57,545 nucleotides of DNA. Origin: Escherichia coli (GTDB lineage: Bacteria > Pseudomonadota > Gammaproteobacteria > Enterobacterales > Enterobacteriaceae). This document shows positions 33,549 through 39,691 of the stretch, in pieces. Made by a program: the position numbers and the translations under genes. Each line of letters begins with the position of its first letter. Within the stretch, counting starts at the first letter, position 1. Below the pieces are notes generated by a model. The model searched no databases, had not been told where the DNA came from, and worked only from the letters and a program-made list of their open reading frames with translations. The stretch is taken from assembly GCF_003334765.1 (NCBI RefSeq), contig NZ_QOWT01000027.1. One strand, written 5' to 3'.

Positions 33549-35810
33549 TTACATCTGACGGTTTTTATTGAAGTTAATCAAACTACCCGCCTTGATAATC
33601 TCGCGCTCTTCAGCAGTCAGACTTTCCATATAGAGCGTAATTTCCGTTACCGGCGCATCTTCATGGATCACATAACCTTTAAACGTCGTACCCGGATTAT
33701 CCAGCGCCGCTTTAATGCCAGGGATGTAAATGTAATCCCCCACTTCAAAGGTTGGTACTTCCGCCATTTGCAGCGGTAACATCCCCCAGTTGATGACGTT
33801 AGAACGATAGCGTTTAGTCGCGTACTCCTCGGCAATATTCGCCAGACCGCCAATCACACGCTGGCAGCTCGCCGCCTGTTCACGCGCAGAACCATCGCCT
33901 GGTTTCACCGCATAGACCATGCTGCCAATTTCAGTTTGCAGCGGATCAATATGCTCCTGACCAGCAATCTGCTTAATGCGCGCAAACACCTCTGTCAGCT
34001 CGCTGACATTCCCCGCCAGACGCTGATTTTCCAGCTCAGCAGTCGCTTTACTTCTGCTAACATAACCGGGATCGCGGCGAGACAGGGTAAACTCCGCCAG
34101 ACCAATCGGATTTGAACGATAAGAAGAGGTTTCACCGGAAGGAATCAGTTCGTCGGTGGTGGTCACTTCGTCGAGGATCTTCGAGCACACTTTCAGGACG
34201 ATATTGTCAGTCAGCGCACCCAATTCCGGCCAGTCTTTAATGTTCGGCCCGTAAATCAGCGGTTGCTGAGTTGCCCCTTTCACAAAGCCCTGATAAACAC
34301 GGTTTTTATACGGCGTTACATCGAAGGCGTACTCCGGCACGTTGTCCCAGCAATCAAGTTCGCTGGCAGAGGTTAAATAGCCACCGTTTGCCGCAGTCGC
34401 AGCGATAGAACGAGCGTCCATCAACGCCACCGCTGACATCTGCCCATTAGCTGGCTTAGAGCCTTCGCGGTTCGGGAAGTTACGCGTGGTGTGGCGAATA
34501 CTCAAACCGTTGTTGATTGGCGTATCGCCCGCGCCAAAGCATGGGCCGCAGAACGCGGTTCTGATGATTGCGCCTGCGCCAATCAAATCTGCTACCACAC
34601 CTTTTTTGGCGAGATCCATAAACACCGGCTGTGATGACGGGTAAACTGCCAGCGAGAAGGTGTCATTGCCACAGGATTGACCGCGCAGTGCATTCGCCGC
34701 CGCGATGACGTTTTCGTAGTTACCGCCAGAACAGCCCGCGATAATCCCCTGCTGCACTTTCAGGCGACCATTTTCCACTTTATCCAGCAGCGAGAGTTTG
34801 GCTTTACCGTGCGCCACGCGTTCGGACTCAATTTCAATCTCACGCAGAATGTCGGTCAGGTTCTGGTTCAGTGTGTCGATTTCATACACGTTGCTCGGGT
34901 GGAACGGCAGCGCAATCATTGGTTTGATGGCGCTTAAATCAACGCTGATGCAGCCATCGTAGTACGCCATCGGTTGAGGGTTAAGCTGGCAGTAATCCTG
35001 GCCGCGACCGTGCAGCGCCAGCCAGTTATGGACTTCTTCATCGGTTTGCCAGACAGAACTTAAACAGGTCGTTTCAGTGGTCATCACGTCAACGCTGTTA
35101 CGGAAATCGGTAGAGAGCGCGCTAACGCCCGGTCCAACGAACTCCATGACTTTGTTTTTGACGTAACCGTTTTTGAACACCGCGCCAATGATAGCCAGCG
35201 CCACATCCTGTGGCCCCACATACGGCGCAGGTTTTCCGGTCAGATGCACCGCAACCACGCCCGGATAGTCGATATCCCAGGTGTCATTAAGCAGCTGTTT
35301 TACCAACTCACCGCCGCCCTCACCGACTGCCATTGTCCCTAATGCACCGTAACGGGTGTGGCTGTCTGACCCGAGGATCATTTTGCCGCCGCCTGCCATC
35401 ATCTCACGCATATATTGATGGATGACCGCAATATGCGGAGGCACAAAAATACCGCCATAACGCTGGGCCGCCGATAAACCAAAAACATGGTCATCACCGT
35501 TAATAGTGCCGCCGACGGCGCAGAGTGAGTTATGGCAGTTGGTCAGCACATACGGCAGCGGGAAACGTTCCATACCGGACGCTTTAGCGGTCTGTACAAT
35601 ACCAACAAAGGTAATATCGTGAGAGGCTAATGAATCAAACTTAATTTTAAGTTTATCCATATTTCCGGACGTATTATGCGAAGAGAGAATAGACCAGGCA
35701 ATAGTGCCTTTTTTGGCTTCTTCTTTTTTAATTTCGCCGGTGAAATGTTCTTCGGCAATTATTTCGTTATTACTGGCGAGAAACACGCCTTTTTCAGATA
35801 ACTTGATCAT
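33549..35810 (-). CDS. ybhJ: aconitase-family (Fe-S) hydratase
   Basis: Start at internal Met ([16 protein letters not shown]...), 753 aa; aconitase-type cysteine ligands and swivel domain. Confidence 0.8.
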
Positions 35811-35992
35811 CAAATGCTCCAGATATCTGCGCACCGTGAAGTGCGCAGAAAGATAATAAATGGATATACTCTAAATAATTCGAGTTGCAGGAAGGCGACA
35901 AGCGAGTGAATCCCCAGGAGCTTACATAAGTAAGTGACTGGGGTGAGCGAACGCAGACGCAGCACATGCAACTTGAAGTATGACGAGAATAT

Positions 35993-37426
35993 TTACAGCA
36001 TGTTCCAGCCGATCAGCATATTCCACCACCACACGCCGAGGGTGATATGCACCAGGAAGGTTAATATCGTCAGTACCGCACCGACCAACCACCAGGATTT
36101 AATATCGTTATAACCCACGCCAAAGATGACCGGACCTGCCGCGCCGCCATAGTGAGTAACCATGCCGCCATAGGAGTTGGAGAACAACAGTGCCAGCGCG
36201 GTTAACATTAACGGTGCGCCGGAGACGTTCGCCAGCATGGCAAATACCGGTAACATAGCAACGATATAGGCACTACCGGAAGCGAAGAAATAACGCACGA
36301 TAATGCTGAGGAAAATAATAACGAAGAAAGCAACGTTACCGTGACCATCAAATGCCAGGTTATTTTTAAAGACTTCAGCTAACCATTCGAAGAATTTAAC
36401 TTTCGATAATAAGGAGCTTAAGCCGATAATACCGCCGTACCAGATTAAGGTATTCCAGCCGCCTTTATTTTTAACCACGTCTTCCCAGGTAACGATACCC
36501 AGCAGCAGCATGGTTGCCATAACAACGATTGCCACGGTGGATTCATCAACCCCCAGAGACTTACTGAAAATCCAGCCCAGCAGCGCCAGCACAAAGACAC
36601 CGAGCAGCATTTTTTCGCGGATTTTCATCGGTCCTAGTTCGGCAAGGCCCGCTTTAGCGATGGTTTTGTTATCCACCTTCTTAATTTCTGGTGGATACAT
36701 GGTGTAAATCACCAGCGGGGTGACCAGCAGCATAATGATGCCCGGCAATCCGGCTGCCAGCGCCCATCCACCCCAGCTAATTTGCAGGTGCAGAATGTCG
36801 TTGATCATTTTCAGCGCCAGAATGTTCCCCGCCATTGCGGTAAAGAACATATAGCTGGTGGTTTTGGTGACCATGTAAATGGACATCATCAGGTAATGTC
36901 CGACACGACGCGGACTTTTTTCCGGTTCGGACCCCAAAGCCACCGCCACGCTGTTGATGATCGGTAACACAATGCCGCCCGCACGCGCGGTGTTAGACGG
37001 TGTTGCCGGAGCCAGTACCAGATCGAGGAATACCGTAACGTAACCCAGACCCAGCGTGGTGTTACCGATTTTACCAATCAGCAGATAGGCAATACGTTTA
37101 CCTAAACCGGTGGTCACAAATGCGGCGCTTAAGGTAAACGCCGAGAACACCAGCCAGGTGGTACCTGAAGAGTAACCGCTTAATACGGCGGTGGTTTTAA
37201 ACGCACCGTCGGATAAGTTACCGACCACCACCATTGAGGCAGCAACGGCAATTAACAGTACGACAGGTTCCGGGAAAGGCTTGATAACCAGCCCCACAAT
37301 GGCCGCCAGGTAAATACCAAAAAGCACCCACGCCAGTTCGCTTAATCCTGCCGGAGCTGGCATAAAACCAATAATACATGGGATCGCTAATATCAGAATT
37401 AGCTTCCATAACGATTTCTTATTCAT
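35993..37426 (-). CDS. ybhI: DASS-family (divalent anion:Na+ symporter, CitT/TtdT-like) transporter
   Basis: 477-aa polytopic ORF with the duplicated hairpin architecture typical of DASS carriers. Confidence 0.85.
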   Translation of the reverse strand: MNKKSLWKLILILAIPCIIGFMPAPAGLSELAWVLFGIYLAAIVGLVIKPFPEPVVLLIAVAASMVVVGNLSDGAFKTTAVLSGYSSGTTWLVFSAFTLSAAFVTTGLGKRIAYLLIGKIGNTTLGLGYVTVFLDLVLAPATPSNTARAGGIVLPIINSVAVALGSEPEKSPRRVGHYLMMSIYMVTKTTSYMFFTAMAGNILALKMINDILHLQISWGGWALAAGLPGIIMLLVTPLVIYTMYPPEIKKVDNKTIAKAGLAELGPMKIREKMLLGVFVLALLGWIFSKSLGVDESTVAIVVMATMLLLGIVTWEDVVKNKGGWNTLIWYGGIIGLSSLLSKVKFFEWLAEVFKNNLAFDGHGNVAFFVIIFLSIIVRYFFASGSAYIVAMLPVFAMLANVSGAPLMLTALALLFSNSYGGMVTHYGGAAGPVIFGVGYNDIKSWWLVGAVLTILTFLVHITLGVWWWNMLIGWNML

Positions 37427-38554: not shown

Positions 38555-38737
38555 AATAATGCCCTCAATTTAAAAACATAACTTATTGCGATATGGTTAC
38601 ATTAAGGGCAAAGCATCTCTAATGACTTTAGCTCAACGATTAATAACATTTTTTCATTAATTTAAGTTGGCTAAATGCAGTTAAAATTTTTAACGGCCAG
38701 CCACCCAAAATCGTCGCTTCCATTTTCCGGAGTAATA

Positions 38738-39691
38738 ATGAAGCATGAATTATCAAGTATGAAGGCATTTGTCATACTGGCAGAGTCCAGTTCGTTTAAC
38801 AATGCCGCTAAATTACTCAATATTACGCAACCTGCATTAACGCGAAGAATAAAAAAGATGGAGGAAGATTTACATATTCAACTATTTGAGCGTACAACTC
38901 GCAAGGTTACGTTAACAAAAGCAGGAAAAAGGTTGCTCCCGGAGGCGCGGGAATTAATAAAGAAATTCGATGAAACGCTTTTTAATATTCGTGATATGAA
39001 TGCTTATCATCGTGGTATGGTGACGTTAGCGTGTATTCCGACCGCAGTATTTTATTTTTTACCGCTGGCAATCGGTAAATTTAATGAGCTGTATCCCAAT
39101 ATTAAAGTGCGGATTCTGGAACAAGGCACGAATAATTGCATGGAATCGGTGCTGTGTAACGAATCAGACTTTGGCATAAACATGAACAACGTCACAAATT
39201 CATCCATTGATTTTACCCCACTGGTCAACGAGCCGTTCGTGCTGGCCTGTCGGCGTGACCATCCATTGGCCAAAAAGCAGCTTGTAGAATGGCAGGAGTT
39301 AGTGGGTTACAAAATGATTGGCGTACGCTCCTCCAGCGGCAACCGACTGTTGATAGAACAACAGCTGGCCGACAAGCCCTGGAAGCTGGACTGGTTTTAC
39401 GAAGTGCGTCATCTTTCGACGTCATTAGGACTGGTGGAGGCGGGACTGGGGATTTCGGCGCTTCCTGGCCTGGCAATGCCTCATGCGCCCTATTCTTCGA
39501 TTATTGGTATCCCATTGGTGGAACCCGTTATACGTCGAACATTGGGAATAATTCGCCGTAAAGATGCCGTACTTTCTCCAGCAGCAGAACGCTTTTTTGC
39601 CTTGCTGATTAATTTATGGACTGACGATAAAGACAATTTGTGGACCAATATCGTCGAACGCCAGAGACACGCGTTACAGGAGATAGGTTAA
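38738..39691 (+). CDS. ybhD: LysR-family transcriptional regulator
   Basis: Start at internal Met (MKHELSSMKAFVILAESSSFNNAAKLLNITQPALTRRIKKME, HTH), 317 aa; divergent from ybhH. Confidence 0.8.
   Translation: MKHELSSMKAFVILAESSSFNNAAKLLNITQPALTRRIKKMEEDLHIQLFERTTRKVTLTKAGKRLLPEARELIKKFDETLFNIRDMNAYHRGMVTLACIPTAVFYFLPLAIGKFNELYPNIKVRILEQGTNNCMESVLCNESDFGINMNNVTNSSIDFTPLVNEPFVLACRRDHPLAKKQLVEWQELVGYKMIGVRSSSGNRLLIEQQLADKPWKLDWFYEVRHLSTSLGLVEAGLGISALPGLAMPHAPYSSIIGIPLVEPVIRRTLGIIRRKDAVLSPAAERFFALLINLWTDDKDNLWTNIVERQRHALQEIG

Follow-up and report, generated by a model that had tools for sequence, protein, structure and literature searches.

Among the systems described so far, the one that most resembles the locus studied here is TarR/TarA/TarB of Bacillus velezensis FZB42, an experimentally proven arrangement in which a LysR regulator diverges across a shared promoter region from the gene for a PrpF-superfamily isomerase, an importer gene comes next, and the product enters central metabolism as cis-aconitate (PMC11495376). 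In the 2-methylcitrate cycle of Shewanella oneidensis, the aconitase-family enzyme AcnD is combined with PrpF, an isomerase of the PrpF family working with Lys73 and Cys107; both belong to a prpR-prpB-prpC operon, and the dehydratase step precedes that of the isomerase (PMC5690661). The (4E)-oxalomesaconate isomerases LigU and GalD (PDB 6P3J) act alongside a dioxygenase, a hydratase and an aldolase in pathways of aromatic ring cleavage, and perform a 1,3-allylic proton shift on a tricarboxylate by means of a Lys/Cys pair. Here, we describe ybhD and the divergent ybhH-ybhI-ybhJ genes in a 57,545-nucleotide stretch of Escherichia coli DNA (contig NZ_QOWT01000027.1 of assembly GCF_003334765.1; hereafter the window). 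We propose that these genes form a module for an aconitate-type tricarboxylate, most likely plant trans-aconitate, which YbhI would import, YbhH isomerize and YbhJ hydrate under repression by YbhD, and we give this proposal about an even chance of being correct. In the literature that we searched, no substrate is assigned to any of the four genes and none is linked to aconitate.

The minus strand of the window carries ybhJ (33549-35810), encoding a 753-residue hydro-lyase of the aconitase family, ybhI (35993-37426), encoding a 477-residue anion transporter of the DASS family, and ybhH (37502-38554), encoding a 350-residue 1,3-allylic isomerase of the PrpF family for which a crystal structure (6OTV) is available. 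On the plus strand, ybhD (38738-39691) encodes a LysR-type regulator of 317 residues. These coordinates use the annotated ATG codons of ybhJ (35810) and ybhD (38738); the longest open reading frames (ORFs) span 33549..35834 and 38675..39691, respectively. The RefSeq annotation of an identical strain gives the order bioA-ybhB-ybhC, ybhJ-ybhI-ybhH (minus), ybhD (plus), pgl, ybhA and modCBA, and names the four products 'hydratase' (ybhJ), 'anion permease' (ybhI), '4-oxalomesaconate tautomerase' (ybhH) and 'LysR family regulator' (ybhD). The gene content, names, order, strands and coordinates of the original prediction are borne out by the ORF list and this annotation, its intergenic region at 38555..38737 by the annotated starts of ybhH and ybhD, and its family assignments (LysR, PrpF-type, DASS, aconitase-type) by Pfam and NCBIfam profile matches. 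A 7.2 kb query around the block finds matches in all 5426 complete E. coli genomes, with at least 80% coverage in 5223 of them, nearly all at 95-100% identity, and less than 80% coverage in the other 203. The block is core E. coli.

YbhH is identical to the protein of PDB entry 6OTV ('putative isomerase YbhH'). Its closest characterized relative is LigU, with 46% identity over the full length, and the two proteins share the fold. Residues K59 and C93 of YbhH, the latter in the NCGN motif, align with K66 and C100 of LigU and correspond by motif to K73 and C107 of PrpF, so that the Lys/Cys pair of YbhH is the one used by LigU, PrpF and methylitaconate isomerase. The PF04303 domain is carried by clusters 79-100% identical to YbhH. 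As enzymes of the PrpF family isomerize aconitate (PMC5690661), we predict that YbhH is an aconitate isomerase working from trans to cis. A role as PrpF proper, that is, as a 2-methylaconitate isomerase, was considered and rejected at a TIGR02334 score of 187 bits against a cut-off of 440.6. The NCBI oxalomesaconate tautomerase model NF033377 (OMA_tautomer; cut-off 440) is passed by YbhH at 515 bits and by its Pseudomonas and Providencia orthologues at 528 and 506 bits. All YbhH-clade proteins that we checked pass this model (506-528 bits), yet none of them adjoins genes for gallate or protocatechuate cleavage. The model probably over-annotates the YbhH clade.

YbhI scores 554 bits against the DASS model TIGR00785 (cut-off 198.6), and PF00939 is listed for P0121, the cluster identical to it. 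Over its full length, it is 33% identical to the citrate:succinate antiporter CitT, its paralogue encoded by E. coli citCDEFXG-citT, and is predicted to be an importer or antiporter of aconitate-type tricarboxylates. Orthologues of YbhI and YbhH replace citT in Providencia and adjoin cit genes in Dickeya and Serratia. Unlike citT, the ybh block lies about 150 kb away from the citrate lyase genes and has its own LysR regulator in place of DpiAB. Because the block has an isomerase and an aconitase, the imported acid would not be citrate itself.

The gene neighborhoods of YbhD, YbhH and YbhI in other genera point in the same direction. Outside the enteric bacteria, the closest YbhH relatives are found in Pseudomonas, Azotobacter and Dickeya (61-64% identity). 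The YbhD|YbhH pair occurs in these three genera, in Providencia and in Klebsiella, invariably next to genes for carboxylate carriers, citrate lyase or tricarballylate use, with YbhH 61-69% identical across the loci and YbhD orthologues 54-64% identical and divergent from the YbhH orthologues where this was measured (Pseudomonas, Dickeya and Klebsiella). In Pseudomonas, the pair lies beside a DctA-type carrier, a CitMHS carrier and an OprD porin, and in Dickeya beside citCDEF, an MFS carrier and a protein of the fumarylacetoacetate hydrolase family. Klebsiella quasipneumoniae has YbhD, YbhH, YbhI, an extra DASS carrier and YbhJ (6790-14290 of its locus), placed after ileS-lspA-fkpB-ispH-rihC, whereas the E. 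coli site is bio/pgl. In the Azotobacter chroococcum locus (416-9988), tcuA and tcuB with a LysR gene of their own lie on one side of the YbhD/YbhH-like pair, and CitMHS and OprD lie on the other. TcuA and TcuB oxidize tricarballylate to cis-aconitate, and this arrangement suggests a combined tricarballylate/aconitate utilization island. Providencia has the order citCDEFXG-YbhI (65% identity)-YbhH (61%), with YbhI at the position that CitT occupies in E. coli. In Serratia, the YbhI orthologue follows citEFXG and a true AcnB, which is a non-orthologous aconitase in the same position; our guess is that co-expressing an aconitase with citrate lyase brings a benefit. The neighborhood of a YbhI-like locus in Snodgrassella was uninformative. 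Judged by these comparisons, regulator and isomerase together make up the conserved core; carriers differ from locus to locus, and an aconitase of YbhJ or AcnB type is an optional add-on. If import and an allylic isomerase are useful by themselves, their product must be a central metabolite, which argues for the formation of cis-aconitate from trans-aconitate.

For the aconitase-family member of the block, we examined domain models, catalytic residues and relatives. YbhJ contains the Pfam domains Aconitase (PF00330; residues 41-470, 296 bits) and Aconitase_C (PF00694; residues 638-684, 27 bits). Among NCBIfam models, it exceeds the cut-off only for its own, NF008503 'hydratase', at 1541 bits. 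It falls below the cut-off of the canonical-aconitase equivalogs, with a best score of 343 bits for PRK07229 (cut-off 612) and less than 100 bits for the AcnA and AcnB models, and it is far under the cut-offs of the isopropylmalate isomerase and homoaconitase models. We rejected an identity with AcnD (TIGR02333, 63 bits against a cut-off of 1420; the annotated 15 kb is free of prp genes) and, in view of the model scores, a conserved arginine and the neighbors, also a role in homocitrate or isopropylmalate metabolism. When YbhJ was aligned to pig mitochondrial aconitase and invariance was checked across 19 members of the family, drawn from Enterobacterales and Firmicutes, the cluster cysteines C360, C421 and C424 fell on pig C358, C421 and C424. 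Likewise, H93, H131, D149-S150-H151, E246 and S641 of YbhJ correspond to H101, H147, D165-S166-H167, E262 and S642 of aconitase, and R443, R448 and R643 to the carboxylate-binding R447, R452 and R644. All of these residues are invariant in the 19 members. The arginine of the 'SYRS' motif is invariant as well; we take this residue, R565, to be the putative equivalent of aconitase R580 by motif only, as neither the phmmer nor the profile alignment extends over this segment. Taken together, these features lead us to predict that YbhJ is an aconitase for cis-aconitate, citrate and isocitrate.

The relatives of YbhJ were collected from one genome per species, yielding at least 589 loci, of which the best 80 were analyzed; overall, about 90 related loci were compared. 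Eight of the best 80 belong to Enterobacterales (Escherichia, Citrobacter, Intestinirhabdus, Edwardsiella and Klebsiella oxytoca) at 76-98% identity. The remainder are chiefly gut and rumen Firmicutes, plus Collinsella, and are 66-73% identical over the full length. Neighbors were counted by clustering all ORFs within 10-kb flanks of 70 non-enterobacterial loci in this 66-73% range. At least one citrate-related neighbor is present in 34 of the 70 loci. A citrate synthase gene (NF010635, 590 bits, cut-off 426) is found in the flanks of 19 and directly adjoins YbhJ wherever inspected, and a gene resembling isocitrate dehydrogenase (IDH) is likewise present in 19. Citrate lyase genes citD-citE-citF are found in nine loci, carriers of CitMHS or related type in nine, and a PrpF-like gene in six. 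The operon forms include YbhJ-citrate synthase-IDH, with gaps of 3-55 bp, LysR-YbhJ-citDEF, and PrpF-like-YbhJ-IDH. Citrate synthase-aconitase-IDH operons, of which Bacteroides fragilis provides an example, encode the tricarboxylic acid (TCA) cycle's oxidative branch in anaerobes. The Firmicutes YbhJ orthologues sit in the equivalent slot, the place of a true aconitase, whether the direction is biosynthetic or fermentative. A difference from those operons is that the YbhJ family forms a distinct clade, as seen in its subthreshold PRK07229 score and in six family-specific changes. In the Blautia (4741-11250) and Clostridium (4001-11232) loci, we observed two to three YbhJ paralogues with an RraA-like protein between them, a member of the carboxy-hydroxy-oxoadipate aldolase/oxaloacetate decarboxylase family.

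The regulator links the block to published experiments. A ChIP-exo study placed a single YbhD site upstream of ybhH, named ybhH and ybhI as targets, found ybhH strongly upregulated by RNA-seq in a ybhD deletion, implicated Nac as well, and described a growth phenotype of the deletion that depends on L-malate, without assigning a substrate (PMC9068703). YbhD matches 54 LysR-family NCBIfam models, none of them above its cut-off, and its orthologues carry PF00126 and PF03466. The divergent control region between ybhH and ybhD (38555-38737) has a GC content of only 28-32%. In an alignment of eight Enterobacterales, its best-conserved element across Escherichia, Citrobacter, Intestinirhabdus, Edwardsiella and Klebsiella is an ATTAAT-N11-ATTAAT dyad at 38639-38661, with a second conserved block, CTAATGACTTT, at 38619-38629. 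The dyad has the geometry of a T-N11-A LysR box and, as read from the DNA, is the candidate YbhD binding site. A promoter and terminator scan of 33200-39800 gave nothing above shuffled expectation (5 promoter-like hits against 9.1 expected and 10 terminator-like hits against 7.6), and thus speaks neither for nor against a promoter of ybhJ inside the operon. An Rfam scan returned only matches to REP and ERIC repeats, with no riboswitch or small RNA in the spacers.

We infer the substrate, the direction of transport, the activity of YbhJ and the inducer in the following scheme. YbhI would bring trans-aconitate through the inner membrane, perhaps exchanging it for succinate in the manner of its paralogue CitT. 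YbhH would then shift the double bond by means of Lys59 and Cys93, turning trans-aconitate into cis-aconitate, and YbhJ, an Fe-S aconitase belonging to a type mostly seen elsewhere in gut Firmicutes, would hydrate this product to citrate or isocitrate. These could pass onward to citrate lyase under anaerobic conditions or to isocitrate dehydrogenase. YbhD would bind the AT-rich promoter region between the divergent genes, with the dyad as its probable target, and silence the operon as long as substrate is absent; the predicted inducer is the imported tricarboxylate. The original prediction of an uncharacterized, LysR-controlled tricarboxylate module is thus supported and is narrowed by gene context to aconitate or citrate, and the control of ybhH by YbhD within it had already been established experimentally (PMC9068703). 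A substrate of the aconitate/citrate type in general is, in our estimation, likely; for trans-aconitate specifically, as deduced from the neighborhoods, the balance is close to even. Isolates that assimilate trans-aconitate include members of Citrobacter, Providencia, Serratia and Enterobacter (PMC13188880).

Of the described systems, TarRAB is the nearest to this scheme in its divergent LysR gene, shared promoter region, leading isomerase gene, adjacent importer gene and, as predicted for the ybh block, entry of the product as cis-aconitate. TarA homologues of 39-41% identity have been listed in Shigella, E. fergusonii, Citrobacter and Edwardsiella (PMC11495376, Table S6); these are most likely YbhH orthologues. 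The differences from TarRAB are that the ybh importer is of the DASS rather than the MFS family, making YbhI analogous but not homologous to TarB, that a dedicated aconitase-family gene, ybhJ, is added, and that TarR activates its target while YbhD, judged by RNA-seq, represses. Moreover, TarRAB is proven by experiment, whereas the ybh block is known from its genes and from the published regulation by YbhD. The AcnD/PrpF logic invoked in the original prediction holds as far as the pairing of an aconitase-family with a PrpF-family enzyme is concerned, but the analogy is a loose one, given the AcnD score of YbhJ and the lack of prp genes nearby.

Several observations weigh against this proposal. 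YbhH is slightly nearer to LigU (46%) than to TarA (about 40%) and passes the oxalomesaconate tautomerase model. The sole published phenotype of a ybhD deletion concerns L-malate, not aconitate. YbhJ has been called a 'catalytically inactive paralog' of aconitase, with Blank et al. 2002 cited for the statement, in a study that found lower NADPH in a ybhJ deletion (PMC4054840). The YbhJ family as a whole departs from canonical aconitase at six conserved positions, with H at Q72, C at D100, Y at N170, V at N258, T at N446 and A at S643. Furthermore, acnA acnB double mutants are glutamate auxotrophs, from which it follows that YbhJ is no substitute for aconitase while its operon is repressed. Why E. 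coli would need a third aconitase is not evident. Resistance to trans-aconitate and anaerobic expression are the guesses that we can offer, ordinary aconitase being inhibited by trans-aconitate according to the cited literature.

Some of these same observations would suit a different unsaturated or hydroxy di- or tricarboxylate, such as itaconate, citraconate or mesaconate, homoaconitate, methylaconitate or a malate-related acid, handled by the same scheme of isomerase and hydratase. PrpF-family and aconitase-family pairs serve several pathways, AcnD/PrpF among them; methylitaconate isomerase with dimethylmalate dehydratase is another such pair. The six departures of YbhJ from canonical aconitase and the L-malate-dependent growth phenotype of the ybhD deletion (PMC9068703) fit such a substrate, as does the nearly equal score of the IDH-like neighbor on homoisocitrate dehydrogenase models (393 bits versus 448). 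We nevertheless regard this alternative as unlikely. The neighbors are citrate lyase, CitMHS, TcuAB and a citrate synthase for which neither a homocitrate nor a methylcitrate synthase model scores best; YbhJ and YbhH stay far under the cut-offs of the AcnD (63/1420) and PrpF (187/440) equivalogs, respectively; the arginine that we assign by motif to an R580-like position argues for a third carboxylate on the substrate; and no prp, leu or rip genes lie nearby in E. coli.

It is less probable still that the RefSeq name of YbhH is literally correct, with a genuine 4-oxalomesaconate tautomerase of the GalD/LigU type, a module for a tricarboxylate from gallate or protocatechuate ring cleavage, and YbhJ as an unusual hydratase replacing GalB/LigJ. 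The NF033377 score of YbhH, its identity to LigU and the shared Lys/Cys pair are what this assignment would predict, and the gal cluster of Pseudomonas putida also contains a LysR regulator and an OprD-type porin. The neighborhoods speak otherwise. We found no ring-cleavage dioxygenase, GalB/LigJ or GalC/LigK gene around ybhH in E. coli, nor next to its orthologues in Pseudomonas, Dickeya, Klebsiella, Providencia or Azotobacter; an RraA-like gene 7 kb off at the edge of the Dickeya locus is the one related gene that turned up. The neighbors that do occur are citrate-type transporters, citrate lyase, TcuAB and aconitases. In addition, oxalomesaconate is a pathway intermediate and unlikely to be an external nutrient with an importer, and the context of YbhJ itself is one of citrate synthase and IDH.

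Least probable of all is that E. coli retains the block as a remnant, cryptic or in decay, with a catalytically dead YbhJ, no metabolic route and at most a YbhH that repairs trans-aconitate formed spontaneously in the cell: the published statement of inactivity (PMC4054840), the silence of the YbhD-repressed operon in laboratory conditions, and insertion sequence (IS) interruptions in some strains with partial copies in Shigella would agree with it, but the block is intact in 5223 of the 5426 complete genomes at 95-100% identity, the retention of all catalytic and cluster residues of YbhJ at 66-87% identity across phyla indicates purifying selection, and a dedicated transporter argues for uptake over internal repair alone.

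Should the trans-aconitate module prove real, E. coli would gain a defined pathway for an abundant acid of grasses and sugar cane, encoded by four adjacent genes that still have 'y' names in K-12 and for which the RefSeq descriptions '4-oxalomesaconate tautomerase' and 'hydratase' are probably wrong or empty. It would also show that the NCBI OMA-tautomerase model over-reaches. The YbhJ clade would then also become the TCA-branch aconitase of numerous gut anaerobes, with corrections to metabolic models and to thousands of annotations.

The base composition of the block bears on its origin. The original prediction held that ybhI, ybhH and ybhD are AT-rich (about 33-43% GC in sampled 60-mers) and took this to suggest that this part was acquired apart from ybhJ. 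The window has an overall GC content of 0.521, and its 48 long ORFs, which served as the reference for GC at third codon positions (GC3), have a mean GC3 of 0.582 with a standard deviation of 0.056; codon bias was judged by GC3 and by comparison across orthologous blocks, in place of a codon adaptation index. GC and GC3 are 0.514 and 0.565 for ybhJ, 0.498 and 0.592 for ybhI, 0.488 and 0.439 for ybhH, and 0.444 and 0.463 for ybhD, and GC is 0.28-0.32 for the ybhH/ybhD spacer. By GC3, ybhJ and ybhI are ordinary for the window, ybhH is the lowest of the 48 ORFs (z about -2.6), and ybhD is among the lowest (z about -2.1). The share of 60-mers with at most 43% GC is 11% in ybhJ, 19% in ybhI, 17% in ybhH, 51% in ybhD and 100% in the spacer, compared with 14% over the entire window, so that the range of 33-43% fits ybhD and the spacer but not ybhI or ybhH as wholes. 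AT-richness thus stands for ybhD, the spacer and the third codon positions of ybhH and fails for ybhI, and the effect is smaller than was claimed.

In the Citrobacter and Klebsiella blocks, all four genes are GC3-poor (0.39-0.62) relative to neighbors at about 0.63 in Citrobacter and 0.68-0.73 in Klebsiella. In E. coli, ybhD and ybhH alone stand out because the GC3 of the host happens to equal that of ybhI and ybhJ. A separate acquisition of regulator, transporter and isomerase agrees with the YbhD|YbhH pair having a gamma-proteobacterial history of its own without YbhJ, but ybhI groups compositionally with ybhJ. The low GC3 of all four genes in Citrobacter and Klebsiella, together with the different chromosomal site in Klebsiella, indicates that the present block acts as one mobile unit.

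Outside Enterobacterales, the closest relatives of YbhJ are those of gut Firmicutes. The mean identity between Enterobacterales and Firmicutes is 68%, compared with a lowest value of 66% within Firmicutes; clustering at 50% reduces the family to a few full-length representatives, beyond which no full-length relative exceeds 47% identity. This pattern fits a transfer between phyla under strong constraint, for which our unrooted neighbor-joining tree of YbhJ gives no direction between Firmicutes and Enterobacterales. We put forward a wider history only tentatively and think it somewhat doubtful: the YbhJ clade would provide the functioning aconitase in many gut Clostridia, Negativicutes and their kin, a third bacterial type hidden under the annotation 'hydratase', that was transferred across phyla to enterobacteria and joined there to a CitT-like carrier and the sensor-isomerase pair YbhD|YbhH of proteobacteria, giving E. 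coli a self-sufficient and possibly trans-aconitate-resistant route for fermenting trans-aconitate from plants via citrate lyase in the gut.

Two dispersed repeats flank ybhJ. The ybhI-ybhJ spacer contains an enterobacterial repetitive intergenic consensus (ERIC; also intergenic repeat unit, IRU) element at 35864-35987, which contains both sequences of the ERIC polymerase chain reaction primers. A sub-threshold Rfam match to V_AS5 covers the same positions, and the 136-base window 35850-35985 has a median of five near-identical copies per genome across the 5426 E. coli genomes. Lengthened by this element, the spacer measures 182 bp in Escherichia, compared with 63-76 bp in Citrobacter and Edwardsiella. 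The element is probably co-transcribed with the operon and could affect the coupling of ybhJ expression to that of ybhH and ybhI. Between the convergent ybhC and ybhJ genes, a cluster of about four repetitive extragenic palindromic (REP) units, a bacterial interspersed mosaic element (BIME), occupies 33318-33546; it is the reason why the 7.2 kb query matches a median of 27 places per genome. One of its REP units matches Rfam naRNA4 (RF02564) at 60.7 against a gathering score of 59.5.

Some strains carry insertions, in the region equivalent to 36000-38500 of the window, or partial copies. In UMNF18, an ISVsa5-family IS4 element under the match is listed between ybhI and ybhH, and in O145:H28 12E115 an IS629 lies within the block, with ybhH annotated as two PrpF-domain fragments. 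In Shigella flexneri records, ybhI is partial.

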